A stretch of 47,604 bases of DNA from Tepidisphaeraceae bacterium (lineage in GTDB: Bacteria > Planctomycetota > Phycisphaerae > Tepidisphaerales > Tepidisphaeraceae): contig JBEKIV010000046.1 in assembly GCA_050011595.1 (NCBI GenBank), positions 1 to 47,604 of the forward strand. Direction: 5' to 3'. Below, piece by piece: positions 4,618 to 47,232 of this stretch. The stretch's first letter is position 1, and every line of letters starts with the position of its first letter. The notes beneath the pieces were generated by a model that worked only from the letters and a program-made list of their open reading frames with translations, was not told the DNA's origin and did not search any database. Both the position numbers and the translations under genes were made by a program.

Positions 4618-6609
4618 GTGCAAGAAAAGCTGGATGAAGAGAAGAGCGACGTTTCATTGGCCCGGGCCAAGCGATCGTCCCGGGAGGTCTGGCAACTTGC
4701 TGCGCTGATCTTGGTGACGTTTGCCGCGTATTATCCGACGCTGGGCAATGGATTCGTCTGGGATGATGACCGGTACGTCGAGCAGAATTACCAGCTTCGC
4801 ACGCTGAAGGGGCTGGAGCGAATCTGGCTGGAGCCGTTGAAGGCCGAGCCGCAGTATTATCCGCTGACGCATACGACGCTGTGGGTTGAATATCATTTCT
4901 GGCGCCTGCGCGCGTTCGGATACCACCTGGACAATCTTGCTCTGCACGCGGCGGGAGCGGTGTTGCTGTGGCGAATCCTGCGGCGGCTGAAATTGGGCGG
5001 GGCATGGGCGGCGGCCATTGTTTTCGCGGTCCATCCGCTGCAAGTGGAATCGGTCGCCTGGGTAACGGAGCGGAAAAACGTCCTCAGCGGATTTTTTTAT
5101 TCCCTTTCGCTGTGGGCCTATCTGCAAACGAAATGGGGCCGGCGAATTTGGGATTCGCAAGACAGCGGCCGGATTGGCGCGGGATGGTATTTTCTGAGCC
5201 TGCTGTTGTTCGCGGCGGCGATATTGAGCAAATCGGTCACGGCCACGCTGCCGGCGGCGATTTTGGTATTGTGCTGGTGGAAGCGGGGGAAAATTCGCGC
5301 CGGCGACGTGTGGCCGGTGACGCCGATGCTGGCTGCGGGGGCGGCCATGGGAGGGTTGACGGGATGGATGGAGAAGCACGTGGTCGGCGCGATCGGGCCG
5401 GACTTCGATTTTCTCACTCCGCTGGATCGCCTCTGCATCGCCGGCCGGGCGTTTTGGTTCTATTTGACCAAGCTCGCCTGGCCCGAACACCTCAGCTTCA
5501 TCTATCCGCATTGGCAGGTCGATCCGGCGCAGCGGCCGATTTGGATTCTTTTCCCCCTGACGGCGATGGGATTATTGATCGGATGCTGGCTGCTGCGTCG
5601 CCGGATCGGCCGCGGGCCGGCGGCGGCGATGTTCTTCTTCGCCGGGACGCTTGTCCCGGCGATGGGATTCGTGAACGTGTTTCCGATGCGGTATTCATAC
5701 GTCGCGGATCATTTCCAATATCTCGCGTGCATCGGCCCGATCGCGCTGATCGTTGGAGTTCTAAGCACCGGATGTACATCCGGTGCTGCGCGTGTGTTGG
5801 CGGGTTTGGTCATTGTGACGATATGCGCCGCGAGCAATGTGCGTGCTCGGGTGTTCCTGGATCGCCGAACGCTCTGGACGGACACGCTGGCGAAGAACCC
5901 CGATTCGCGGGTGGTTCGCAATAATTACGCGGCCGCGCTGAGGGATGCCGGAGAATTGGAGGCGGCCAAGTCGCAGTATCGCGCCGCGATGCGGCTCGGG
6001 AACGACGCGGGAGACTGGGTGGGGCTGGGTCAGTGCTTCGCCATGCAGGGCGATTTTTCGACGGCGCGGGATATGTATCTCAAAGCCCTCGCCGCGACGC
6101 CGGTTTCCAGCGAGCCGGTCTTTCAGCGGATGCTCGCCGGACGATACTTTCAGCTTGGGACGGCCTATCAGGGATTGGCCGGTGAATATCTCGCCAAGGC
6201 CGAGGAAAGTTATCGGCGGGCGATCGATCTGTTTCCCGAATACGAGGACGCGAGAAAAAATCTGGCGTTGGTGTTCATCGATCAAAAGCGATATCCGGAA
6301 GCGATCGAGCAGTGCCAGGCCATACTGGACCAGAATCCCGATTCGGTCAGCGCGCATACGAATCTAGGTACGGCATATTACGAGCAAGGCCGGCTCGATC
6401 TGGCTCTGCAAGAATATCAATTCGTGCTGGAATTAGAGCCTGAAAACGTCGGCGCGCTGGCCAGCTCGGGGGCGATCCTGGCCCAGCAGGGCCACGTTGA
6501 TGCGGGGATCGAGATGCTGCAAAAGGCGTTGAAGATCGACCCGAACAACGCGATGGCCCAACAGGATTTGCTGGCGGCGATGAACGCGCGGGCGCGAGCG
6601 CGGCGGTGA
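4618..6609 (+). CDS. Paralogous GT-C membrane glycosyltransferase with C-terminal TPR repeats
   Basis: 663-aa ORF with a GTG start. It has the same hallmark after TM1 (GFVWDDDRYVEQN) and shared blocks with the upstream gene (QYYPLT.T.LWVE, NVLSG, ADHFQYLA). Clear TPRs at the C-terminus (AIDLFPEYEDARKNLALVFIDQKRYPEAIEQCQAILDQNPDS...). Confidence 0.75.
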   Translation: MQEKLDEEKSDVSLARAKRSSREVWQLAALILVTFAAYYPTLGNGFVWDDDRYVEQNYQLRTLKGLERIWLEPLKAEPQYYPLTHTTLWVEYHFWRLRAFGYHLDNLALHAAGAVLLWRILRRLKLGGAWAAAIVFAVHPLQVESVAWVTERKNVLSGFFYSLSLWAYLQTKWGRRIWDSQDSGRIGAGWYFLSLLLFAAAILSKSVTATLPAAILVLCWWKRGKIRAGDVWPVTPMLAAGAAMGGLTGWMEKHVVGAIGPDFDFLTPLDRLCIAGRAFWFYLTKLAWPEHLSFIYPHWQVDPAQRPIWILFPLTAMGLLIGCWLLRRRIGRGPAAAMFFFAGTLVPAMGFVNVFPMRYSYVADHFQYLACIGPIALIVGVLSTGCTSGAARVLAGLVIVTICAASNVRARVFLDRRTLWTDTLAKNPDSRVVRNNYAAALRDAGELEAAKSQYRAAMRLGNDAGDWVGLGQCFAMQGDFSTARDMYLKALAATPVSSEPVFQRMLAGRYFQLGTAYQGLAGEYLAKAEESYRRAIDLFPEYEDARKNLALVFIDQKRYPEAIEQCQAILDQNPDSVSAHTNLGTAYYEQGRLDLALQEYQFVLELEPENVGALASSGAILAQQGHVDAGIEMLQKALKIDPNNAMAQQDLLAAMNARARARR

Positions 6610-14533: not shown

Positions 14534-16233
14534 TCGGCCCAGGGGGCGTCGTCGGGTTCGCCCGGGTTTGGCGGAGCGGTCAGGTCATACACGTCAATGG
14601 AGTCACCGACTCGAGCGATGGGGCGATAGCGCGCCAGCCACGGCAGGGGGCGGTCGATGAGACGGACATTTTTGCTGATGAAAAGCATCCTGCCATGCGG
14701 AGAAGCGACGAGGGACTCGGGGTCCAATCGCAATTGGCGCAGGAGCGGGGCATTGCGGCGGCCCGTGAGGCGGATGGCGCAGGGCCGGCCCGGGGCGTTG
14801 GCGCCTATCCAATCGGCCAGGCGGTAGACGTCCTGGTTCCAATCGAGGTTGCTGTCCAGCGCAAATCGGTCTCCGCCCGACGAGCCGCCGGCGGCGAGAT
14901 TGAAATAGCCGAGATAATCGGGATGAACCGCGGCGGTTTCCAGGGCGGAGCAAAGCATGAGACAGGCGAGAACCCAGACCCAGCCGGGTCTCACCAATTG
15001 GATCGCGGCGAACAGATAGAGAAACGGAATGGCCGGCAGGACGTAACGCACACCGATGTCGATGTTGCTGGTCATGGCGGCGAGGAGGAAAACGGCTGGG
15101 GGAAGAAGGACGTGGCGCATCGCCCAATCGCGCCATTGCCGGCGGCCCAGAAAGAGGCCCAGAGCGATGAGGGAAGCGGCCAGGAATCCGATCGGGCTTT
15201 TGAGGGCGAGAACTTCGGGAAAATAGTACCACCATCCTTGGGAACTGACATGGCCGTTGAGATAGGCGAGGTGTCCGAAGCGGTTATGAACGGACTGGCG
15301 GGCCAGGGCGAGGAAAAAGCTGGGCATGGGGATGGGCGTTTGGCGGACCCATGGGGGAAGACGCTGCCATTGTTGGCGCATGGATTGCGCCTGAGGGTTG
15401 TCGGCTGCATCGTGTTGGGCGGGAGCATTGAGGCCGGCCTGATCGCCGAGGGGGCCGAGGTTGAAGAAATAAGTGGCCCACAGCGTCGTGAATGCGATCA
15501 GCGCCATCAGAGGCAATTGCACCATGAGGGTTCGCCAGCGGGAAATTCCGGTCATAGCGACCAGTGCGATGACGGGAATGACAAGCAGGCAGGAGAATTT
15601 GGTGGAGATGGCCAAGCCGCAGACGGTGCCGGCAAGGGCGGCCCGTGGCCAGGCGGGGTTACGGAGCCATAGGAACGCGTAATAAGTTGCCGCGAGATAT
15701 CCGGCGCAGGCGGCGACATCGTTTCCGATCCAGAATCCGTGACCGAGGAGGGTGGGATCGAAGCTGAAAAAGGCGACGGCGGCCGCGGCGGCCGGCGGAC
15801 CGGCGAGCCATCGCCCCAGGCGATACAGGTAAAACAGCGAAATCGCCGGGAAGAGGAGCATCACGAGCCGGGCGTGGGTGAGCAGAGTGCCGGTCGGTTT
15901 CAGGCTCTGGTAAAGGACCTGGGTGCCGAGGGCGTATCCGAGGTCCTCGGTTCCGATGGTGGTTTGTCCGCGGCATTGGGGGAGGCGCGCCCCGTCGAGC
16001 CACAGGGGGATCGCGGCAAGGAGCCTGGCGAGCGGCGGATGGCCGCCGGGTGCGATGAGCTTGTGGGCTTCGATCATGGAGACGGCCGCGCCGATGTGGG
16101 CAGGTTCGTCGGTTGCGGGGCTGAAAACTCTGACGGAAAGGGCCAGCCGGAGGACCATGACAACGCCGGCGGCCAGCGCCAGCCAGGGATAGATGCGACG
16201 ATGAGTCGATGGAGCTTGGGCGCGGTCGTTCAT
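14530..16233 (-). CDS. GT39/ArnT-like polytopic membrane glycosyltransferase
   Basis: I trimmed the 658-aa ORF to Met92 (MNDRAQAPSTHRRIYPWLALAAGVVMVL...), because the upstream 91 codons overlap the opposite-strand epimerase gene. It has about 10 or more TM helices and an early DEPAH motif, typical of ArnT/PMT-like enzymes. It overlaps the HAD gene start by 4 nt. Confidence 0.7.
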   Translation of the reverse strand: MNDRAQAPSTHRRIYPWLALAAGVVMVLRLALSVRVFSPATDEPAHIGAAVSMIEAHKLIAPGGHPPLARLLAAIPLWLDGARLPQCRGQTTIGTEDLGYALGTQVLYQSLKPTGTLLTHARLVMLLFPAISLFYLYRLGRWLAGPPAAAAAVAFFSFDPTLLGHGFWIGNDVAACAGYLAATYYAFLWLRNPAWPRAALAGTVCGLAISTKFSCLLVIPVIALVAMTGISRWRTLMVQLPLMALIAFTTLWATYFFNLGPLGDQAGLNAPAQHDAADNPQAQSMRQQWQRLPPWVRQTPIPMPSFFLALARQSVHNRFGHLAYLNGHVSSQGWWYYFPEVLALKSPIGFLAASLIALGLFLGRRQWRDWAMRHVLLPPAVFLLAAMTSNIDIGVRYVLPAIPFLYLFAAIQLVRPGWVWVLACLMLCSALETAAVHPDYLGYFNLAAGGSSGGDRFALDSNLDWNQDVYRLADWIGANAPGRPCAIRLTGRRNAPLLRQLRLDPESLVASPHGRMLFISKNVRLIDRPLPWLARYRPIARVGDSIDVYDLTAPPNPGEPDDAPWAE

Positions 16234-19874: not shown

Positions 19875-22049
<2,175 letters not shown>

Positions 22050-24513: not shown

Positions 24514-25947
24514 TCAGATGTCGTAATACATCGCGAACTCATACGGATGGGGCCGCAGCCGCAGCGCATCCACTTCGTTGACCGTCTTGTATTCGATCCA
24601 CGTGTCTATCACGTCGGAAGTGAACACGTCCCCTTTCAGCAGGAAGGCGTGGTCCTTCCTCAGCGCCGCCAGCGACTCCGCCAAGGCCCCGGGCGTCTGG
24701 GCCACTCCCTTGGCTTCCTCCGGTTCCAGGTCGTAAATATTCACGTCCAACGGCTTGCCCGGATCGATCTTGTTCTGAATCCCGTCGATCCCCGCCATGA
24801 GGATCGCCGAAAACGTGAGGTACGGATTGCAGCTTGGATCGGGACAGCGGAACTCCAGCCGCTTGGTCTTGGGGTTGGTCGAGTACATGGGGATGCGGAT
24901 GGCGGCGGAGCGGTTGCGCTGGCTGAGCGCCAGGTTCACCGGCGCCTCGTAGCCGGGGACCAGCCGCTTGTAGCTGTTGGTCGTCGGCGCCGCGAACGCC
25001 AGGATCGCCGCCGCGTGCTTGATGATTCCACCCGCCGCGTACAACGCCATCTCGCTCAATCCCGCGTATCCCTTGCCCGCGAACAGCGGCTTGTCACCCT
25101 TCCACAAACTGAAGTGCGTGTGCATCCCCGACCCGTTGTCCTGGAACAGCGGCTTGGGCATGAAGCAGGCCGTCTTGCCGTAGCGGCGGGCGACCATCTT
25201 GATGATGTATTTGTACAGCGTCACCTTGTCGGCCATCTGAACCAGCGGCGAAAACTTCATGTCGATCTCGCACTGACCGCCGGTGGCCACTTCATGGTGC
25301 TGGGCCTCGATCTCGATCCCGCATTCCTCCATGAGCAGCATGCACTCGGTGCGGATATCCTGAAGCGAATCGCTCGGCGGGATCGGGAAATACCCTTCCT
25401 TGTACCGCAGCTTGTTCCCCAGGTTTGGCTTGTCGCCGTCGCATTCCCGCCCGGAATTCCAAATGCCCTCGGCCGAGTCGATGTGGTAGTACCCTTCGTG
25501 CTGGTTTTGGTCATAACGGATCGAATCGAAGATGAAGAACTCCAACTCCGGGCCCATATAGGCCGTATCCGCCAGTCCCAGAGTTTGCAGGTGCTTCACG
25601 GCCTTCCGGCTGATATTGCGCGGATCGCGCGTGTAATCCTCCTTGGTCACCGGGTCCTGAATATTACAGATCATCACCAGGGTCGGTTCCTTGGCGAACG
25701 GATCGACAAACGCCGTCTCCGGCGCGGGAATGACGAGCATGTCGGATTCGTTGATCGCCTGCCAGCCGCGGATGGACGATCCGTCGAAACCGAGGCCTTC
25801 CTTGAATGTATCCGCTTCGATGCAATGAACGGGCACGGTGAAGTGCTGTTGCATGCCGGGGAAATCCATGAACCGGAGGTCCACGGCCTTGATTTTTTTG
25901 TCCTTGATAAGCTTCAGTACGTCCGCGGGAGTCTTTGCCGCATTCAT
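24514..25947 (-). CDS. glnA: Glutamine synthetase type I (copy 1)
   Basis: 477-aa ORF with [62 protein letters not shown], the adenylylation-loop Tyr (NIYDLEPEE), and an AAGAGGAAA RBS upstream. Confidence 0.92.
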
Positions 25948-26090: not shown

Positions 26091-26138
26091 ACCCCCCTCA
26101 TCCAAACGGCTGACCGGTTTATTGTGAGGAGAATTTCC

Positions 26139-27551
26139 ATGTCCCCTGCCGACGTACTAAAGCTTTGCAAGGAAAAGAAAGTCGAGTTTTTCGATCTGCG
26201 ATTTATGGATTTTCCGGGGCTTTGGCAACATACCACCTGTCCAATCAACGAGTTAACGCTCGAGAGCTTCGATCACGGTTTTGGGTTCGACGGCTCTTCA
26301 ATCCGGGGATGGCAGGCGATCAATGAATCGGACATGCTGCTGGTTCCGGTGGCCAGCACCGCCAAGATCGACCCGTTCATGACCCACAACACCCTGTCGA
26401 TCATCTGCGACGTGCGCGACCCGATCACCAAGAAGGAATATTCGCGCGATCCGCGTTCGATCGCGCGGAAGACGGCGGCGTATTTGAAGAAGACCAAAAT
26501 CGCCGACACCGCGTATTTCGGTCCGGAACTGGAATTCTTCATCTTCGATCATGCGTTTTACGATCAGGGGATTAATTTCGGGAAATATTACGTCGGAAGC
26601 CGCGAGGGAATCTGGGACCGGGGAAGCGAAGACCCCAGCAACCTCGGATACAAGGTGCGCTTGAAGGAGGGATATTTCCCCACGCCGCCGATGGACACCA
26701 TGCAGAACATCCGCAGCGAAATGGTGGCGACGCTGATCGAGTTGGGCATTCCGGTGGAGGCGCATCACCACGAAGTGGCCACCGGCGGACAATGCGAAAT
26801 CGACATGCGGTATCAGGACCTGGTGACGATGTCGGACAACGTGATGATGTACAAATACGTGTGCAAGAACGTTGCGGCGCGGCATGGGAAGGTGGTGACG
26901 TTCATGCCCAAGCCCCTGTTCCAGGACAATGGTTCGGGGATGCACGTGCATTTCAGCTTGTGGAAGGGGGACAAGCCGCTGTTCGCCGGGAACAAATACT
27001 CCGGATTGAGCGAGATGGGATTGCACGCGATCGGCGGGGTGTTGAAACACGCCAAGGCGCTTTGCGCGCTGTGCAATCCGACGACCAACAGCTACAAACG
27101 CCTCGTGCCGGGTTACGAAGCGCCGGTGAACCTGGTCTACAGCAGCCGGAACCGCTCGGCGGCGATCCGCATCCCCATGTACAGCGAAAATCCGAAAACC
27201 AAGCGGTTGGAATTCCGCTGCCCGGATAGCTCGTGCAATCCGTACCTGGCGTTCAGCGGAATGGTGATGGCGGCGATCGACGGGATCCAAAACAAGATCG
27301 ATCCGGGTGAGCCGCTGGACAAAAACATGTATCATCTGACGACGGAGGAATACGAGCAGATCGACTCGGCGCCGGGGTCGCTGGAAGAGGCGTTGGCGGC
27401 CTTGGAGGAGGACCACGAATTTCTATTGAAGGGGGACGTATTCACCGCGGACGTGGTTCACTATTGGGTGAAATATAAGAGGGAGACCGAGGTGGACGCC
27501 ATCCGCCAGCGCCCGCATCCCTATGAGTTCTGCATGTATTTTGACATTTGA
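26139..27551 (+). CDS. glnA: Glutamine synthetase type I (copy 2, divergent paralog)
   Basis: I moved the start from the track's GTG at 26124 to the ATG at 26139, which is preceded by GAGGAGAA. It carries the same GSI motifs as copy 1 ([39 protein letters not shown]) and retains the loop Tyr (NMYHLTTEE). Confidence 0.92.
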   Translation: MSPADVLKLCKEKKVEFFDLRFMDFPGLWQHTTCPINELTLESFDHGFGFDGSSIRGWQAINESDMLLVPVASTAKIDPFMTHNTLSIICDVRDPITKKEYSRDPRSIARKTAAYLKKTKIADTAYFGPELEFFIFDHAFYDQGINFGKYYVGSREGIWDRGSEDPSNLGYKVRLKEGYFPTPPMDTMQNIRSEMVATLIELGIPVEAHHHEVATGGQCEIDMRYQDLVTMSDNVMMYKYVCKNVAARHGKVVTFMPKPLFQDNGSGMHVHFSLWKGDKPLFAGNKYSGLSEMGLHAIGGVLKHAKALCALCNPTTNSYKRLVPGYEAPVNLVYSSRNRSAAIRIPMYSENPKTKRLEFRCPDSSCNPYLAFSGMVMAAIDGIQNKIDPGEPLDKNMYHLTTEEYEQIDSAPGSLEEALAALEEDHEFLLKGDVFTADVVHYWVKYKRETEVDAIRQRPHPYEFCMYFDI

Positions 27552-39114: not shown

Positions 39115-41103
39115 ATGAAGTATTGCAACCCATCTTATCTTGCCGTGTTCGCGGTAGTTGCCGGCATTCCATTTTTTGCCAAGCCCGTTGTCGGACAGAT
39201 ACGCGTTGATACCAGCGGCCACGCGATGGATGCCAACCCGCAGATTGGCAGCGGGGGATACAACCAGACTTCCAACACCTCGCAGGCAAGTTGGGGCCAG
39301 TACCAGAACGCATTGCTCAACAACAGTGTGGGTGGATTTGGCGTCGGCGGCCGCGCGTACAACGCCTTCAACCTCAGCGCCGGCTACACCAATCCATTCG
39401 GATTCCGCGGACTTATGGCCGGACAGGGCGTCGACCAATTCATCACCCTGTCCAACCCTGGATCCACCATGACCTATCCCACCGATTCTTCATCCAACCC
39501 ATACGCCTACGCGGCGCCATCGACGGACCAGCAGATCTTTTACGGGTTGACGAATCGCTCGGTCGCGCCTCCAGGATTGCCCGGCGCCGTCGGCAACCCC
39601 GCATACCTTCCCGCGCAACCGGTCGGCCAGCCGTCCGAAGACCTTCGCCTGGGCGCTATCGAATTCAGCGGCCAAAGTCAGGTCCTTCCCAAACCAACCG
39701 AAATGATCCTGCCCGGACCGGTCGATCCAACCGCCAATCCCACCACCCCCGCCCAGCAGCAGTTGTACGCCTCCACCATCTATGGCGTCTTGGCCTTCAA
39801 CCCCCAACAGCCCCAACAGCAAGACCAGAACAATCCGCAATCCGCCATCTTCGGCCCGTCCCCATTGCAGCAAGGTGGGGTTTCGCCTGCCCTTGCTCAA
39901 AACCCCATCCAGGCTCGTGTGAAAGAATTGCGACAGGAACTTGACGCTGAAAGCAAAAACGCCATCGGAACGCAAAATGCCTCCGGCACCTTCGGCGCGT
40001 CACTGCTCAAACCCATCCAACCCGGCGGTGAAAACTCCGATCTTAACCAGCCGTTGCCGGCCCTCGCTCCGGAAACCGGGGTGGTGGAGTCGCCCAACCT
40101 CGCCCCAGCAGCCGGTGACGTGAGCACCGGTCAATCCAACCGGCAGTATCTCCCCAATGACGCCAATTTGCCGCCGCCCACTCAGCAAAGCGCTCTGTAT
40201 GCCAGGCTCCGCCAAAGCATGGACGATTACAATTCCGCCAATTCCCTGACCGATGAGCAGGCCAACCGGAAATTCCAGGAGATTCTCCGCCTTCGCAACC
40301 TGGCAAGCGTCAACGCCGAACACGGCTCCAACGTATTGACCGGCCCCGGCGCGGCGGCAACGGCGAATCCCGGCGAACTCCCCGGCGGTATCCCCAATCC
40401 CGAAGAAACCATCAGACCCTTTCCCGGCCCCGAGCAAAGTACTCATTTCGCCAAGCCGGGATTCACCACCATGCCCAGCAACATGGGCGCCGTGCCCGGC
40501 GTTGGCTTGCCGCCCGTTTCCGCCCCGCCCGTGCCCATCGAAAGCTTCGCCACTGGAATACAATCCAAGGGTTTGGCCGGCCTGATCGCCAATGCGGAAC
40601 TCAACGTTGAGCAACATCATTACGACAAGGCCATCGCCCAATATAACGCGGCCATCGATGTCGCCCCGAACAATCCGCTGATTCTCATGGCCCGCGCCAC
40701 CGCCGAGCTTGGCGGTGGATATTACGCCCAGGCCAACTCCGACATACACTTCGCCGTCGCTCAGGACCCCGCCGTCCTCATGGGGCAGTACGACCTGCAA
40801 AAACATCTCGGCGCCGATCGCCTCAAGTCCCTCCTGGCCGATCTGAAGCAGATGGCCAAGCAGTCCAACGACGACACGCTCCACGCTTTCCTGCTCACCT
40901 TCGCCTATTACAACTCCCAGCACCTCGCGCTGGCGGTGGATTGGCTGGATATCGCCGACAAACGCGCTAAAGGTCAGGACCTGGCCATCGTACAGATGAA
41001 AAGATATTGGAATTTCACCGAAGACCAGCAGCCCGCTCTGACGCCGCCCGCCGCCAAGCCCAGTTCCGCCGCGCCCTCAACGCGTCCGGCCGGCAAGAAC
41101 TAG
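39115..41103 (+). CDS. Secreted hypothetical protein: Gln/Pro/Asn-rich low-complexity region plus C-terminal TPR-like repeats
   Basis: 662-aa ORF with the signal peptide MKYCNPSYLAVFAVVAGIPFFAKPVVGQ. The C-terminal region AIAQYNAAIDVAPNNPLILMARATAELGGGYYAQANSDIHFAVAQDP is TPR-like. Its TAG stop is the first three bases of the MITE. Confidence 0.65.
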   Translation: MKYCNPSYLAVFAVVAGIPFFAKPVVGQIRVDTSGHAMDANPQIGSGGYNQTSNTSQASWGQYQNALLNNSVGGFGVGGRAYNAFNLSAGYTNPFGFRGLMAGQGVDQFITLSNPGSTMTYPTDSSSNPYAYAAPSTDQQIFYGLTNRSVAPPGLPGAVGNPAYLPAQPVGQPSEDLRLGAIEFSGQSQVLPKPTEMILPGPVDPTANPTTPAQQQLYASTIYGVLAFNPQQPQQQDQNNPQSAIFGPSPLQQGGVSPALAQNPIQARVKELRQELDAESKNAIGTQNASGTFGASLLKPIQPGGENSDLNQPLPALAPETGVVESPNLAPAAGDVSTGQSNRQYLPNDANLPPPTQQSALYARLRQSMDDYNSANSLTDEQANRKFQEILRLRNLASVNAEHGSNVLTGPGAAATANPGELPGGIPNPEETIRPFPGPEQSTHFAKPGFTTMPSNMGAVPGVGLPPVSAPPVPIESFATGIQSKGLAGLIANAELNVEQHHYDKAIAQYNAAIDVAPNNPLILMARATAELGGGYYAQANSDIHFAVAQDPAVLMGQYDLQKHLGADRLKSLLADLKQMAKQSNDDTLHAFLLTFAYYNSQHLALAVDWLDIADKRAKGQDLAIVQMKRYWNFTEDQQPALTPPAAKPSSAAPSTRPAGKN

Positions 41104-41379
41104 AGCACGTTGCAAGTCGGTGTACACCGGTCAAAATCCACCCGCGCGAATTCTGTCCGGAACGCCCACGGCGCTGCCTCATCCTTACCCACAATTGTCC
41201 GGACCCCGCTTACGTCCGCGGAAAAGAGGGTTGTGCCTGCCGATTTCAGGGCTGGAATCCGCGTTCCTGTTATGGAAAGCGAGCCCACCCTGAGATGCCA
41301 CCCTGAGATGTGGGTAAGGATGAGGCGCTGCCGTGGGTCTTTCTTCGCGAAAGACTACGTCGACCTGCAACCCGCTCTA
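41101..41379. mobile_element. MITE copy 2 (279 bp: the 125-bp unit plus a 145-bp nested insert plus a 9-bp duplication)
   Basis: It has the same termini as 6684-6808 and about 6 substitutions across the shared 125 nt by hand alignment. It is interrupted within the central hairpin. Confidence 0.7.
41179..41323. mobile_element. Nested 145-bp MITE-like insert with perfect 15-bp TIRs and a 9-bp TSD
   Basis: The TIRs tcatccttacccaca (41179-41193) and tgtgggtaaggatga (41309-41323) are exact reverse complements. The flanking direct repeats ggcgctgcc sit at 41170-41178 and 41324-41332. The uninterrupted copy has a single ggcgctgcc at 6753-6761. Confidence 0.75.
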
Positions 41380-41971: not shown

Positions 41972-42835
41972 ATGAGCAGAATTGCGCTCTCGCTATCGAC
42001 GCCCTCGCCTTCTACCCAGGCCGCACTCCCCCCCGCCGGAGACGTCGCCACCGCCACGCCCCAGGACATGGTCAACCCCGCTGATATTCTCATCCAGGCT
42101 CGAAATGTCAGCGTCTTTTACGGCGCCCACGAGGCCGTCAAGGCCGCCTCACTCTCCATGCCCCGAAACCGCGTCATCGCATTGATCGGGCCCAGCGGGT
42201 GCGGCAAAACCACCTTTCTTCGTTCCATCAATCGCCTGAACGACCTCATCCCAGGCTGCCGAGTCGAGGGAGAATTGCTCGTCTCCGGCCAGAACATCTA
42301 CGAACCCAATGTGGACCTGGTTGCCCTTCGACAGCAGATCGGCCTGGTTTTCCAAAAGCCCAATCCGTTTCCCAAGTCCATCTATGACAACATCGCCTAC
42401 GGCCCGCGGCTCCAGGGCATCACCCGCCGCGCGGAATTGGACGGCATCGTCGAGGACTGCCTCCAGAAGGCCGCGCTTTGGGAAGAGGTCAAGGACCGCC
42501 TCAAAACCAGCGCCTTGGGAATGTCCGGCGGACAGCAGCAACGACTCTGCATCGCCCGCGCCCTGGCAACCCGCCCCACCATCCTCCTCATGGACGAACC
42601 CTGCAGCGCCCTCGACCCCATCGCCTCCACCAAGATCGAAGACCTCATGACCGGCCTCCGCGCCAATTACACCATCGTCATCGTCACCCACAACATGCAG
42701 CAGGCCGCCAGGGTCAGCGATCTTACCGCTTTTTTCCTCATGGGGGCCTTGGTGGAGTATAATACCACTCAGGAGATATTCACCACCCCGAAGGAGAAGC
42801 AGACCGAGAACTACGTCAGAGGGATTTTCGGCTGA
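41972..42835 (+). CDS. pstB: Phosphate ABC transporter ATP-binding protein
   Basis: 287-aa ORF with Walker [10 protein letters not shown], the PstB-typical [17 protein letters not shown] and [17 protein letters not shown], the signature [13 protein letters not shown], and Walker B ILLMDEP. Confidence 0.92.
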
Positions 42836-42864: not shown

Positions 42865-43524
42865 ATGTCACATCATCTGACCGATCTTCTTGAAAACCTG
42901 CGAACACAGGTGGCTCGCATGACGACGCTGGTCCTGCAGGTTGTCGAGCAGGCTTGCGATGCCGTCTTCACCGCCGATTCCAAGCTCGCACAGGAAACCA
43001 TCGGCCTCGATCAGCGCATCGACGACGAGGAGGTCCGCGTCGAGAAGAGCGCCATCGATCTCCTGGCCCTTCAACAGCCCGCCGCCGTCGATCTGCGCAC
43101 CGTCACCACAATCATCAAGGTCAACTCCGATTTCGAACGCATCGCCGATTGCGCCGTCAACATCGCCCAGCGCGTCCTGCCCCTTTCCCAGATGCCCGAT
43201 TACGTGCCCCCCGACGACTTGAAGCTCATGGCCAACACCGTCATGGCCACCCTCCGCGACACCATCAAGGCGTTCAATCTGCGCGACGAGGACCTCGCCC
43301 GCCACGTCATCAAGAGCGACGACGTCGTTGATGCCCTCTATCACCAGATCGTCCAGGACATGATCTGCCTCATGGAAACCGACGGCCAGAAGGCCAACGC
43401 CGAGCTTGGCAACATCATGATCGCCAAGAACCTGGAGCGCATCGCCGACCACTGCACCAACATCGCCGAGGACGTCGTCTACATTCACACCGGCCGCATC
43501 ATCCGGCACCTCCACGCCGTGTAG
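42865..43524 (+). CDS. phoU: Phosphate signalling complex protein PhoU
   Basis: 219-aa ORF with two PhoU repeats, each ending in the E/D-R-I-A/G-D-x-x-x-N-I-A motif (FERIADCAVNIA and LERIADHCTNIAE). Confidence 0.9.
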   Translation: MSHHLTDLLENLRTQVARMTTLVLQVVEQACDAVFTADSKLAQETIGLDQRIDDEEVRVEKSAIDLLALQQPAAVDLRTVTTIIKVNSDFERIADCAVNIAQRVLPLSQMPDYVPPDDLKLMANTVMATLRDTIKAFNLRDEDLARHVIKSDDVVDALYHQIVQDMICLMETDGQKANAELGNIMIAKNLERIADHCTNIAEDVVYIHTGRIIRHLHAV

Positions 43525-43607: not shown

Positions 43608-43967
43608 TCAAAGCGATTTCGCATATTCAATCATGCCTTGAAAATCGACAACGACCGCAACTTCGTCGCCGACGACCCAGGCATCGTGGCCGGAGGGCAA
43701 GAGGGAAACGTCGCCCGGCTTGCAGTCGAACTCCGTGCCATCGTCCATGCGAACCCGCAGCACGCCTGAAACGTGATACTGGAAATGCGGAGCTTCGCAA
43801 CTTTTGGTCTTGGCAATCGGCTGAATTGACGTGGCCCATCGCCAGCCCGGCTCGAAGATGGCTCGGCCAACTGTCGCGCCGCCGACCTTGATCAACTCCA
43901 ATCTGCCTTTGGGAAACTTCCGAACCTCATCCGGTTTACCGAAGTTCTTCAATTCCGCTTTCTTCAT
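43608..43967 (-). CDS. Cupin-domain protein
   Basis: Trimmed to Met29 (MKKAELKNFGKPDEV...), which is preceded by AAAGGAGA. The cupin-like core is HFQYHVSGVLRVRMDDGTEFDCKPGDVSLLPSGHDAWVVGDE. Confidence 0.7.
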   Translation of the reverse strand: MKKAELKNFGKPDEVRKFPKGRLELIKVGGATVGRAIFEPGWRWATSIQPIAKTKSCEAPHFQYHVSGVLRVRMDDGTEFDCKPGDVSLLPSGHDAWVVGDEVAVVVDFQGMIEYAKSL

Positions 43968-44143
43968 ATGTCTCCTTTCCGTTCCTCGATGGCGATTGCG
44001 AGAAACTCGATACGCCCAAGGCATCGAAAGCGGAGCCTTGGCTATCCACACGTGGTTGATTCCGTGCTCACGCGAACAGTTTAGGCATGGAGCGAGTGGA
44101 TAGTCGAGGGCTGGGGGCAGTGCGCGACATCCCCATTCCTCGC

Positions 44144-44416
44144 TCAGCTTGGCTTCGTGGTCGACTTTCCATGGTGACGGTGATGGCGGCGGTGATGGTG
44201 ACGGCGCCAGTGGCGATGGTGCCGGTGATGGTGATGCCGCCAGCGCCGGTGATGGTGGCGGTGGCGCCGGTGGTGATGCTTATGGGCCGGTCGGCTGGTG
44301 GCTCCGTTGGCGGATGCACCATTGCCCGATGGGTTCGGGTTGGACGCCGTTGCCATGCAGGGGATAAACCCGGCAAACAGTGCAATCAAGATTAAAATTG
44401 TGACCTTACGGCTCAT
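44144..44416 (-). CDS. Small secreted His/Arg-rich protein
   Basis: 90-aa ORF with the signal peptide MSRKVTILILIALFAGFIPCMA, a Gly/Asn/Ser/Ala linker, and then a 40-residue tract HKHHHRRHRHHHRRWRHHHHRHHRHWRRHHHRRHHRHHGK (22 His, 13 Arg, 2 Trp by hand count). AAGGAG lies 13 nt upstream of the ATG. The two alternative frames lack any signal peptide. Confidence 0.55.
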   Translation of the reverse strand: MSRKVTILILIALFAGFIPCMATASNPNPSGNGASANGATSRPAHKHHHRRHRHHHRRWRHHHHRHHRHWRRHHHRRHHRHHGKSTTKPS

Positions 44417-44478
44417 GCTTGACCCCGTTCTCCTTGAAAATCTCCGAGCAAGATATATGCATGATTGCGATGGTTGAA

Positions 44479-45306
44479 TTATTTCTTACCGGCGGCGACC
44501 CAGTCGTCGATCGCTTGACCCAACTCGGGGTTGGACAATAGGTCGGCCATTTCGTTTTCCATCCAGTGACGCAGGCAGGGGATTGGATCCATTCCCGCAA
44601 CCAGTTTGCGCGCCTCATCCTCCAGCGCGGACTGCTGATCCCCGTATTCTTCCGCCGAGAGGCGATGGACTCGCGTCAGCAGTTGATTCACCTTGGAGAC
44701 AATCTTCGGCGGCTTCCCCGGATTTACGCCGCCGCTGAGCATGCCCAACTCTTTGGACGTGTCATCTCGCAGAGATGCGAAATCATCATCGGAAAGATCA
44801 CGGCTCTGATGCACCGCATCGAGAAGCAGTTCGGTGGGATCGTCGATATCCTCCGCATTTTGGCCGATGTAACCGGCAACCTGCTTGACTGAAAGCGTCT
44901 TGAGAAAAGTGACGGCCTTGGTCTTGGCGGACTCGGATTGCTCCACATCCGGCTCGGAATCGGGGTCTTGTTTGTCTGCCGCATCGCCGATCTTGTCTTC
45001 GGCGCTGTCGATCCTGTCTTCGTCTTTGCTGAGCAGCGCGTCGCGCATATCTTTCATCGCGGCGTTGTAATCGGCCGTGACAGGTGCTGGCGTATCCGAG
45101 AGCGTGCCAGCCGTGTCCGAGGCCAAGTCCTTTAAGGCCGATAGTTGTTCTGGCGTCAGGTTCAGATCATGCAACGTGGAAAGCGCGTCGACCTGAAGTT
45201 CCAACTTCACCTCGCCGGATGGCTTGTCTGTTTGCGCCTGGAGAAAGCGACTTCCGATGAACAGCCAAAGCGCCGCGGCAAAGAACAAGGTGTATGGGTT
45301 TCGCAT
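44479..45306 (-). CDS. Secreted, strongly acidic hypothetical protein
   Basis: 275-aa ORF with the signal peptide MRNPYTLFFAAALWLFIGSRFLQA. A hand count of the mature part gives roughly 52 Asp+Glu against about 26 Lys+Arg. No family recognised. Confidence 0.6.
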   Translation of the reverse strand: MRNPYTLFFAAALWLFIGSRFLQAQTDKPSGEVKLELQVDALSTLHDLNLTPEQLSALKDLASDTAGTLSDTPAPVTADYNAAMKDMRDALLSKDEDRIDSAEDKIGDAADKQDPDSEPDVEQSESAKTKAVTFLKTLSVKQVAGYIGQNAEDIDDPTELLLDAVHQSRDLSDDDFASLRDDTSKELGMLSGGVNPGKPPKIVSKVNQLLTRVHRLSAEEYGDQQSALEDEARKLVAGMDPIPCLRHWMENEMADLLSNPELGQAIDDWVAAGKK

Positions 45307-45436
45307 GGGACAGAATTTCCCTAATGAGCCCTTATCTGATCAAACGTCCAGCCACGATTAATATTCCAAGCAATTTCGATTTATTTTGGCGATCTTGCCC
45401 ACGGAATACAAGGCGACCCGGACGCCGTGCGGATAC

Positions 45437-46762
45437 TTAGAAACCGATCTGAAGCCGTATTGTCGCAACCAGCGCATTGGGATACGTGCCGCCGGGATTT
45501 ACGATGTACTGCAGGTCGGGCTGGATGAAAGCCCAAGGCGTTAGCTGCCATTGATAGAACGCTTCCAGTGCGATTTCATACGAATGCGACAATCCTGCCT
45601 GTGGGCTGATGTGGGCGTATTGCGGGCTGAAACCGATGATGTCGTCCGCTCGGGCGCCAAACACACCTGTCCAGGTAATCCCACCGCCGAAATGCTGATC
45701 GATGACACTGATGTCGTTCTGCGTGCCGCCGTATTCGAGGAATGTCCGCAAGCCCCGTCCCTTGTCGGGTTCACCGGCGGGTTGCCAAATAGTCTGGTCA
45801 AAGATGCCGTAGTAACCGTAGGTGCCTTCCTGCTGCGATCCGTCGAAGCGCATGAAGGTTCCGGTATCCCCCCAAGCGCCCACCTTGAGGTTGCCGGCAA
45901 GCCCGAGCAAGGGTGTCCCATGCCATTTAATGCCGGTCTCGCCGATGAGAAACGTGCCGAATTCGGCGGGCTGATTTTTCGCGGGATCGTCCACCAAGTC
46001 GCCAAATCGGTCCGAGCGGTTCGCGTAATAGGCGCCCAAGCCCGCGTAATAGGAATCGTTGGGTGTGAAGAAGACATTGACTGACGGCATCGGATCGGGC
46101 GTGGTGGGAAACATGAAGATCGTCGGGCTGACCTGTGTCGAGCTATTGATGAATGGCAGGCCATTGTCGATGACGCTGAATTCGGTGTTGGCATCCACCT
46201 TGCCGACCTTGATGCGAAGTTTGCCGTCAAACAGTTGCTGCTGATACCACATCTCGAAGATCTGGAAATATGGCCGTGTATTTTGCTTATCGAACACCTG
46301 AAGATCGCCTACCAGAGTGCTCGTCGGATTGCCGAACGCGTGGTCTTCCAAATCCACGTAGAACTCGCCGCCAGGCAAGTGCAGCAAACTTTCGGTGTCC
46401 AAGGCAAAGTTCAAATCCAAGGTTGTGGCTCCGACGGCATGAGCGGTGTCGATGCCGCCCTGAAAGTTGTCGAAGCCTTCAGCGATGAGGGTGGCGCCGA
46501 CCGTGATTCCCGCATCCTGCAATTTCTGCCGCTGCCCCCACCAATCGCCGGTCAGGTTGTTCTCAAAGCTCGCGGGGGATGTCGTGGGATTCTGCTGCGT
46601 CGTGCCGACCTCCGGCTGCGTCGCCACATCGGCAAACAGCGGATTGTCATTTTGAGAACCGGAGGTTTCCGCCATCGCCGTGCAAAGCGATGCCCGCGAA
46701 AGAGCCGTCAGAACCGCGGTGCGGCCGAGAACGGCCGCGCATCGACGAATCGCCCTGCCCAT
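45437..46762 (-). CDS. OprB-family (carbohydrate-selective-type) outer-membrane porin
   Basis: 441-aa ORF with a signal peptide ending in AMA. The OprB-type N-terminal signature is LTGDWWGQRQKLQDAGITVGATLIAEGFDNFQGG. It has an alternating beta-strand pattern and a C-terminal ...IRLQIGF with terminal Phe. Confidence 0.75.
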   Translation of the reverse strand: MGRAIRRCAAVLGRTAVLTALSRASLCTAMAETSGSQNDNPLFADVATQPEVGTTQQNPTTSPASFENNLTGDWWGQRQKLQDAGITVGATLIAEGFDNFQGGIDTAHAVGATTLDLNFALDTESLLHLPGGEFYVDLEDHAFGNPTSTLVGDLQVFDKQNTRPYFQIFEMWYQQQLFDGKLRIKVGKVDANTEFSVIDNGLPFINSSTQVSPTIFMFPTTPDPMPSVNVFFTPNDSYYAGLGAYYANRSDRFGDLVDDPAKNQPAEFGTFLIGETGIKWHGTPLLGLAGNLKVGAWGDTGTFMRFDGSQQEGTYGYYGIFDQTIWQPAGEPDKGRGLRTFLEYGGTQNDISVIDQHFGGGITWTGVFGARADDIIGFSPQYAHISPQAGLSHSYEIALEAFYQWQLTPWAFIQPDLQYIVNPGGTYPNALVATIRLQIGF

Positions 46763-46920
46763 AAGCCCTGCTCCCTCAAACCGGAGGTCTTTGATATCGA
46801 AGTTCGTTATAATGGGACGCGGGGGGCGCGGTCAATGTCGTTGCCGCGCAACTGGACTTGGCATTTTGCCTCCGGCGGCTCGCATCGATCGACACGATCA
46901 TCTATAACGAATTGCGCGCT

Positions 46921-47232
46921 ATGGCAGATCAAGACCTCTATTCCGGACTGATTCGCCTGCATGTCCTCCATCATGCCCGTCGGGAGCCGCTCTTCGGGTT
47001 GGGCATGATCAGGGAGTTGCGGCGGCACGGGTATCGAATCGGCCCCGGCACGCTTTACCCCGTGCTACACCGGCTGGAGCAAAAGCGGTATCTTCGCTCG
47101 CATAAGCAGGTCATCGGGGGAAAATTGCGCCGTTGCTACAGCATCACTCCTGCCGGCCGACGCGCCCTGACGCAAGCTAAAGCCAGGGTAAGCGAACTGT
47201 TCGAGGAATTATTCCAGCCCTCCGACGCTTGA
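46921..47232 (+). CDS. PadR-family transcriptional regulator
   Basis: Trimmed to the ATG at 46921. Contains LIRLHVLHHARREPLFGLGMIRELRRHGYRIGPGTLYPVLHRLEQKRYLRS....GGKLRRCYSITPAGRRAL. Confidence 0.85.
   Translation: MADQDLYSGLIRLHVLHHARREPLFGLGMIRELRRHGYRIGPGTLYPVLHRLEQKRYLRSHKQVIGGKLRRCYSITPAGRRALTQAKARVSELFEELFQPSDA

Follow-up and report, generated by a model that had tools for sequence, protein, structure and literature searches.

A predicted exported histidine/arginine-tract peptide and the acidic partner protein encoded beside it in a Tepidisphaeraceae contig

The locus studied here raises the question of whether a short open reading frame (ORF) ending in a long run of histidine and arginine codons is a gene at all and, if it is, what its product could do in the cell. 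The ORF occupies positions 44144..44416 on the minus strand of a 47,604-nt stretch of DNA from a Tepidisphaeraceae bacterium (GCA_050011595.1, contig JBEKIV010000046.1, positions 1 to 47,604), and this whole stretch is called the window below. A sequence-only reading had taken the product for a secreted peptide that it did not recognise as belonging to a described bacterial family. We found that the His/Arg (HR) peptide gene is conserved as the second member of a two-gene cassette, the first member of which encodes an acidic protein that is likewise predicted to be exported, referred to here as the partner. The evidence for the gene and for the pairing is given first, and the possible functions of the pair are then weighed against each other.

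The gene runs from ATG to TGA, 90 codons plus the stop, as indicated by its translation and by homologous ORFs at 14 loci, and its 90-aa product is MSRKVTILILIALFAGFIPCMATASNPNPSGNGASANGATSRPAHKHHHRRHRHHHRRWRHHHHRHHRHWRRHHHRRHHRHHGKSTTKPS. Codons 1-23 (44348..44416, minus) are predicted, by manual criteria only, to encode a cleavable Sec signal peptide, with the n-region MSRK, a 14-residue hydrophobic core VTILILIALFAGFI that ends in Pro, the sequence P-C-M-A after it and small residues at -3/-1; residues 3-22 form a helix in the AlphaFold2 (AF2) model. The near-neutral N/G/S/A/P linker that follows (codons 24-44, 44285..44347, minus; 25 aa with a net charge of +1 by scripted boundaries) ends in ATSRPA and contains a junction, T-S/T-R/Q-P, shared with relatives. 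The tract itself (codons 45-84, 44165..44284, minus) is HKHHHRRHRHHHRRWRHHHHRHHRHWRRHHHRRHHRHHGK, and its 40 residues comprise 22 His, 13 Arg, 2 Trp, 2 Lys and 1 Gly, so that the hand counts of the sequence-only reading were exact, and the strand, which it had left unstated, is minus. Histidine accounts for 55% of the tract, with HHH, HxH and HHHH clusters, and arginine for one third, while Met, Cys, Asp and Glu ligands are absent from it. The product closes with the tail STTKPS (codons 85-90, with the stop at 44144..44164, minus). Its last Met is residue 21, and the mature part, about 67 aa long, contains no Cys, Gln, Glu or any acidic residue; full protonation of its His would raise the charge of this part from about +17, the value at neutral pH, to as much as about +39. 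Past the signal peptide the pLDDT (the AF2 confidence score) is 43-60, the linker staying below 50 and the tract reaching 54-60, and the mature peptide is thus modelled as having no stable fold.

The simplest explanation of such a sequence would be a chance ORF, untranslated and lying over a GGTGAT/GGCGGC-type DNA repeat. A weak tandem-repeat signal is indeed present, and the frames that overlap the region are open on both strands without exception; we regard the ORFs at 44087-44395(+), 44149-44367(+) and 44068-44385(-) as shadow frames of the H/R codons and not as genes. In addition, gene callers skipped the ORF in at least three related contigs, and the exact protein is not on record. However, the DNA under the tract is a degenerate repeat with a period of 6/18 and 63-65% matches, His is encoded by CAC 13 times and by CAT 9 times, and Arg is encoded by four different codons. 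Because of this degeneracy and the mixed codons, the tract reflects an amino-acid composition and not a young microsatellite. It also goes far beyond chance and has no equal in the window, where the runner-up among all 40-aa stop-free stretches in six frames contained 21 H+R in a non-coding frame, and where codon shuffles (n=100) gave at most 13 H+R per 40 aa.

Further arguments against a chance ORF came from related genomes. A direct protein search with the HR peptide returned two called relatives only, because most of the relatives are not called as genes. One of the two, P0001, has a signal peptide and the junction ATSQPAHKHHHRRH in common with the window peptide, and the gene just upstream of P0001 is 50% identical to the window gene at 44479-45306(-), which is the partner gene. 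This link was therefore used as a handle to find further loci, and 84 loci encoding partner relatives (L numbers below) were retrieved from species-representative genomes and metagenomes. The HR peptide design was found directly downstream of a partner homolog, on the same strand, at 14 distinct loci including the window. Ten of the entries come from the fetched set (L001, L003, L004, L005, L028, L029, L030, L031/L032, L035 and L036), and three are uncalled ORFs in gaps of 260-360 nt that follow the partner gene (L087 3671-3904, L088 6848-7114 and L089 6857-7075). All of the genome matches are metagenome-assembled genomes (MAGs), and peat-associated projects (SPRUCE, palsa) are the source of the nearest named relatives.

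Across this clade the partners are 46-84% identical to that of the window, and the gap between the partner stop and the peptide gene is 36-94 nt in the relatives, compared to 62 nt in the window. All 14 peptides have 2-3 basic residues in the n-region, and the hydrophobic core, 12-16 aa long, has Pro at its end in 13 of them. The linker described by the sequence-only reading as rich in Asn, Gly, Ser and Ala recurs at 16-33 aa with a net charge of -3 to +3, often ending in the same T-S/T-R/Q-P junction. The tracts are 26-42 aa long and consist of H with R and some W, K taking the place of R in L004 and L005, and include RRW, HWRR and WWW motifs; they are followed by short S/T/P/K tails with variants such as KKATTKPS, PSSRPS and GTTRPTE. 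In total, the peptides contain 18-25 K+R, 10-22 His and 0-4 acidic residues. When the window, L028 and L003 were compared, 20-21 codons differed by synonymous changes only and 19-21 by non-synonymous ones, half of the base changes fell at third positions, and those at second positions were mostly CAC<->CGC (H<->R). The indels among the three genes are in frame, and the C-terminus GKSTTKPS is identical in all of them. The frame, start region, signal peptide, linker motif, tail and stop are thus kept down to 46% partner identity, and no free shifting of the frame within the repeat, which the sequence-only reading had named as the sign of a chance ORF, was found. Judged by these patterns of conservation, the HR peptide gene is real and under selection, and the chance-ORF explanation is effectively excluded, with an exceedingly small probability left to it. 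Gene callers systematically miss this class of low-complexity small ORF, as in all three of the gap contigs checked (L087, L088 and L089), and peptides of the HR type are for this reason under-counted in protein databases.

The partner gene (44479..45306, minus) encodes a 275-aa acidic all-alpha protein, as indicated by its homologs, alignment, charge and AF2 model, with a signal-like helix at the N-terminus in both alignment and model. Asp and Glu together number 52 and Lys and Arg 28, so that the net charge is -24 and the isoelectric point (pI) 4.4; across the HR-peptide clade the net charge lies between -17 and -31. The family conserves a highly acidic loop, DKQDPDSEPDVEQSE, and the motif ADLLSNP at the C-terminus. 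In the alignment no invariant or near-invariant column is His or Cys, and the invariant residues form no cluster of acidic ligands. None of the 56 partner homologs had a Pfam domain and 55 were unnamed or "hypothetical", the sole label from the Joint Genome Institute (JGI) among them, on P0029, looking spurious. With a 29-sequence alignment, AF2 gave a confident all-helical model of 13 helices (pLDDT 90.5; pTM, the AF2 fold score, 0.82). A Foldseek comparison of this model with the PDB found nothing at E up to 0.001 and template-modelling (TM) scores of at most 0.24, a profile search of PDB sequences gave no match to the partner, and neither did Pfam (E up to 0.1) or NCBIfam.

Some features of the partner recall the CpxP/Spy/ZraP (LTXXQ) proteins, which are likewise exported and all-helical, and an LTPEQ-like motif with an invariant Q54 is present. 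The partner is, however, twice as long and has neither a Pfam LTXXQ match nor a structural match to them. The HR peptide itself had no match in Pfam (even at E up to 10), NCBIfam or PDB sequences, and literature searches found no description of the HR peptide family, the partner or their pairing. The view that the peptide falls outside the described bacterial families is therefore upheld by these searches.

The two genes appear to form a unit of their own. They are separated by a spacer of 62 nt (44417..44478, minus), which contains the AAGGAG motif (44430-44435) that had been proposed as a ribosome-binding site. The motif is certainly present, but it is weak evidence: 13 nt separate it from the ATG, and the two closest relatives have AAAGAG and AAAGCG in its place. 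About 100 nt upstream of the partner gene (45307..45406, minus), including GGAATATTAATCGT, are conserved with L028, L003 and L029 in spite of different upstream genes, and this candidate segment is probably the promoter region of the cassette. At the other end, the window and L003 cease to be similar about 25 nt past the peptide stop codon. Because of the conserved 5' segment and the abrupt 3' end of the similarity, the cassette looks like a self-contained transcription unit. A scan for the sigma-70 consensus gave no match, promoter and terminator scans and folding of the 3' region gave nothing above chance, and an Rfam scan of the whole window gave zero matches.

Of the neighbourhood of the gene, relatives keep one gene only, the upstream acidic one, which the sequence-only reading had overlooked; in the loci fetched no other neighbour is conserved. 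In the window the cassette is flanked by an OprB-family porin (45437-46762, minus), beyond which lies a divergent PadR regulator (46858-47232, plus; best NCBIfam similarity Rv3488, below cut-off), and on the other side by a small cupin-like protein (43608-43968, minus; sub-threshold Pfam matches), with phoU (42865-43524) and pstB (41972-42835) further along. In tblastn searches of all fetched loci with the porin, cupin, PadR, PhoU and PstB genes, the porin and PadR genes had no match in any locus, and the cupin and PhoU genes were found in L028 only, the closest relative. Pfam assigned mutually unrelated functions to the flanking genes of the other loci, namely a heptosyltransferase and a Kdo/WaaP-family kinase in L028, a heptosyltransferase in L003, SpoIIE and AlgX in L029, an arabinofuranosidase in L005, a MacB-type ABC exporter with its adaptor directly upstream of the cassette in L001, and further unrelated genes at the remaining loci. 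In the loci examined, genes for metal transport, metal sensing or efflux were not conserved beside the cassette, nor were genes for an exporter, a processing protease or outer-membrane secretion. Within one sublineage, the peptide gene shows clean presence or absence, as about 330 bp between alignable flanks: it is present in L030 (6884-7171) and absent from L034 (~6280-6316) and from L033, and all three loci retain the partner gene.

Export, as the sequence-only reading had it, is most likely the fate of the peptide on the layout of its signal sequence and the AF2 model, and would take it to the periplasm or the envelope. The peptide could otherwise stay in the membrane uncleaved, N-out/C-in, so that the tract would lie in the cytoplasm and bind nucleic acids, polyphosphate or anionic lipids. 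The positive-inside rule would agree with this topology, since the C-terminal side carries +17 or more compared to +2 at the N-terminus, and export of the tract would be costly; pstB-phoU are also close by, in the window as well as in L028. However, the pst linkage is not conserved, and the short core of 12-16 aa with its conserved Pro end and small residues after it is the layout of a cleaved signal. The neutral spacer of 16-33 aa is kept in the relatives, which is needed for export and would be pointless for a cytoplasmic tail, and the ordinary signal peptides of the partner and of the alternative cargos described below point to a common periplasmic location. We consider the membrane-anchored form very improbable. 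A lipoprotein was also rejected because the Cys in question is not conserved, Cys20 (in F-I-P-C) becoming Ser, Tyr, Phe or Thr in L028, L003, L035 and L030. A leader peptide of the his-operon type was rejected as well, the gene having a signal peptide, a 3' position in the cassette and no biosynthetic genes downstream.

More distant partner homologs, at 31-39% identity and including another Tepidisphaeraceae MAG (L008), showed what else may stand in the position of the HR peptide. At 17 loci (L008, L019, L039-L043, L045, L046, L051, L059, L067, L068, L071, L085, L086 and L096) the gene directly downstream of the homolog encodes a beta-sandwich protein with a signal peptide, and in several of these loci the protein matches the CarboxypepD_reg domain of Pfam. 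The His strands and tails of these proteins include HVHVQHHHAHH, LHKHHHHH and HERHGLGLHWHEHAHH; HVQHHHAHH and LHKHHHHH belong to L067 and L019. A third type of cargo, with a long Ala/His-rich N-terminal region, was found in L057/L058 (the same sequence in two metagenomes), with HAHH repeats in L057, and in L010. All of the non-HR downstream cargos have a net charge of +12 to +31 and a pI of 10.9-12 (about 12 for the beta-sandwich family), and in 9 of 11 beta-sandwich proteins K+R (16-35) equals or exceeds His (7-23). The upstream proteins are acidic in most of the distant loci, with net charges of -4 to -16 and one at -25. At least 5 His per 12 residues occurred in the downstream ORF at 20 of 73 loci, compared to 3.4% of background ORFs, and the former figure is a crude undercount in that the wrong frame was picked in several loci.

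Because the distant partners precede other exported basic His-rich proteins, the conserved unit is a secreted pair of an acidic and a basic protein, and among the second members the HR peptide is the form reduced the furthest. With the CarboxypepD_reg-like (PF13620-like) cargos it has in common its place in the genome, a signal peptide, a basic, His-rich make-up and the S/T/P tail, and it differs in that it is too short for the beta-sandwich domain and has no Pfam match. The cargo of L042 is bridge-like, with a beta-sandwich followed by HKKRRRRHERH and then an S/T/G tail. We infer from such sequences that the HR peptide may have arisen by loss of the folded domain. Two further observations concern these distant loci. 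A motif, LH(G/K)..H..H.LG(L/V)..HH, recurs after the domain in the beta-sandwich cargos and carries no functional annotation. In the Gemmataceae-like loci L060 (450-1586) and L076 (142-606), a secreted His/Lys-rich protein with runs such as KKHHKHHKHHKHHKK is encoded upstream, and not downstream, of the partner homolog.

What could such a pair be for? Acidic immunity proteins of basic nuclease toxins and acidic histone chaperones are known to pair with basic clients, and by this analogy we suggest, tentatively, that the HR peptide may be a pH-tunable polycation that its acidic partner holds in the manner of a chaperone, which we find quite possible and rank first. As in those systems, the two proteins are co-encoded and their charges are complementary in magnitude; the cassette differs from them in having no sequence or fold kinship and in that both of its proteins are predicted to be exported, and the pairing is proposed by analogy. 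Both proteins would reach the periplasm by means of their Sec signal peptides, where the partner would bind and neutralise the polycation by pH-dependent electrostatic pairing, as acidic chaperones hold basic clients. The released peptide could then act on anionic material of the envelope or matrix, such as phosphorylated lipopolysaccharide, acidic exopolysaccharide or other polyanions. Protonation of His would roughly double its charge, and a polycation tunable in this way would suit the acidic peat soils in which these bacteria live. In peat-bog habitats the pH is expected to be low. Three of these steps are inferred by us: export, binding between peptide and partner, and the material on which the peptide acts.

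The polycation was ranked first because the K/R charge is common to all three types of cargo, K+R equalling or exceeding His in most of the beta-sandwich cargos, because Arg and Lys would work against the binding of metal cations, and because no metal-handling gene is conserved nearby and the nearest named relatives come from peat projects. Several points weigh against it. With about 17 fixed positive charges, passage of the peptide through the membrane is energetically unfavourable. The partner has no recognisable binding motif, and its fold has no known match. It can exist without the HR peptide, because L033 and L034 keep only the partner, and at many distant loci no His-rich gene follows the partner homolog. 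Finally, richness in His is classically read as metal binding, which the polycation model treats as secondary.

This last point leads to a periplasmic metal sponge or buffer, in which the tract would bind Ni, Zn, Cu or Co and the partner would either hand the metal over or be incidental. Precedents are the SilE/PcoE-type proteins, the termini of ZraP and the cytoplasmic Hpn. The clustered His of the tract would suit this role, and His clusters occur also in unrelated types of cargo (L067, L019 and L057); the HR relatives have weak, sub-threshold Pfam similarities to the His loops of ZrgA, Zip and NicO; and the cupin and the Rv3488-like PadR regulator (a similarity below cut-off) lie nearby in the window. 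However, one third of the tract is Arg (Lys taking this part in L004 and L005), which repels cations, and the Met, Cys, Asp and Glu ligands are missing. The basic charge is more general than the His, given the composition of 9 of 11 beta-sandwich cargos, and the cassette has no conserved neighbour for metal transport, sensing or efflux. The invariant positions of the partner offer no His, Cys or acidic ligand cluster, and at the low pH expected of a peat bog the imidazoles would be protonated. We consider the metal sponge less likely than the pH-tunable polycation, and still a possibility of some weight.

Some relatives carry a name that would support metal handling. The automatic JGI name "Ni/Co efflux regulator RcnB" was applied to a few of them, and RcnB (PF11776) is a small periplasmic protein of Ni/Co homeostasis. 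The label was not reproduced: the RcnB domain is absent from the labelled relatives P0077 and P0169 and from the window peptide, and the name appears to be driven by composition. Another parallel is Hpn and the Hpn-like proteins of Helicobacter, which store Ni and are short, about half His, cytoplasmic, without a signal peptide, and contain Cys, Gln and Glu in place of Arg. The HR peptide is likewise short and about half His and differs by its signal peptide and its Arg; Pfam and NCBIfam gave no homology between them. A further parallel in design is SilE, a disordered periplasmic metal "molecular sponge" (PMC5008109), which serves as a precedent for the metal-sponge explanation and also tempers the earlier view that an exported poly-His design is unusual. 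The HR peptide resembles SilE/PcoE in being small, His-rich and, as predicted, periplasmic, with a signal peptide and without a stable fold. The differences are that SilE uses motifs of His and Met to bind Ag/Cu and is encoded in sil/pco efflux operons, whereas the HR peptide has no Met in its mature part, is one third Arg, and has no efflux neighbours, no sequence match and an acidic helical partner.

The earlier view of an unusual design must also be limited by the many unnamed proteins of similar appearance, although it stands for the specific family, for which the searches found no description. A profile search of 1.84 billion representative proteins gave 88 matches, nearly all with 70-130 residues, a signal peptide and an H/R/W(/Y) tract, and a second profile search gave 53 matches, including a Methylobacterium protein, several of them "hypothetical" and a few auto-labelled RcnB. 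P0069, P0076, P0077, P0129 and P0148 (the last being the L005 peptide) are apparently true relatives. The other look-alikes likewise have a neutral linker between signal peptide and tract, but most of them end differently, either in a BA14K domain or in a tail rich in Tyr/Pro/Gly that closes with RRPGIYLxFGF; they have no T-S/T-R/Q-P junction and, where the genomic context was checked, no partner homolog beside them. On their sequences, the unnamed H/R/W(/Y)-tract proteins of other bacteria are probably convergent. The look-alike set outside the window is large and heterogeneous and includes P0150-P0157, P0166 (Methylobacterium), P0061-P0068 and the BA14K-linked P0060, with a tight group ending in HWRHRHHRWHRWHRHHRHHHHRHWRRW. 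One Arg-rich look-alike, P0146, was set aside: it precedes a repeat protein that was read by eye as PepSY-like and is unrelated to the partner. A precomputed tag, PF28279.1, on two weak matches (P0185 and P0191) was not reproduced by a local Pfam scan and is mentioned in no paper; the tag may stand for a family of very recent date that takes in H/R-tract proteins. Exported His-rich low-complexity proteins are thus already known, and what is new here is the acidic partner of unmatched fold.

An acidic and a basic protein encoded together would also be expected of a toxin or antimicrobial peptide with its immunity protein, the Arg/Trp/His polycation being membrane-active and the exported acidic protein protecting the producer. 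Histatin-5 and the Arg/Trp-rich antimicrobial peptides are secreted, disordered and H/K/R-rich, have a pH-dependent charge and bind both metals and membranes. The likeness of the HR peptide to the histatin type is compositional only, these peptides being eukaryotic, much shorter, unrelated in sequence and without an acidic partner gene. Within the cassette family, the RRW, HWRR and WWW motifs of the tracts, the swapping of the cargo between clades while the partner is kept, the partners without a peptide gene in L033 and L034, which resemble "orphan immunity" genes, and the MacB-type exporter with adaptor upstream of the cassette in L001 are all features that a toxin/immunity system could have. 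However, the cassette has no conserved companion genes for export, processing or outer-membrane secretion, each locus has a single cassette with no arrays of toxin/immunity variants, and the window, L028 and L003 show conservation and not diversifying change. We consider a toxin/immunity pair unlikely.

The pH-tunable polycation can be extended to a wider role for the cassette, which we regard as rather improbable. The pair might constitute a polyanion/polycation envelope system with pH-switched association, by which the periplasm or matrix would be remodelled or buffered. In such a switch, protonation of His would take the peptide from a charge of about +17 to one of about +39, and near pH 4 the partner (pI ~4.4) would lose its own charge, perhaps with reversible formation of a complex or coacervate as the outside pH or the metal load changes.

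The cassette alone settles no long-standing question. It adds a conserved unannotated small gene and a two-gene unit to the poorly studied, uncultured Tepidisphaeraceae and related Planctomycetota of acidic peat and soil. The repeated pairing of an acidic protein with three unrelated basic His-rich cargos suggests a general mechanism for handling polycationic envelope proteins. In practical use, an exported peptide with 22 His and 13 Arg would be a ready-made pH-switchable polycation and metal-affinity tag.

Some other features of the window are recorded here. Between 41104 and 43524, pstB and phoU stand without adjacent pstS, pstC or pstA, and the 870-nt ORF-poor stretch upstream of pstB contains a 29-nt inverted repeat (41165-41193 and 41309-41337) whose arms are 90% complementary and 115 nt apart. 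The region before it (39115-41103, plus) encodes a protein of 662 aa that has a signal peptide, a long low-complexity region rich in Pro/Gln/Gly/Asn and a C-terminal tetratricopeptide repeat (TPR) region. ARAGORN called a 91-nt tRNA-Ala(GGC) at 14767-14857(+), inside long ORFs; in view of its unusual length and the lack of any Rfam match at gathering thresholds, the call is probably false. Within 8 kb there are three glutamine synthetase genes, at 19875-22049(-), 24514-25947(-) and 26124-27551(+), one of type III and two of type I, the type I pair being divergently arranged.

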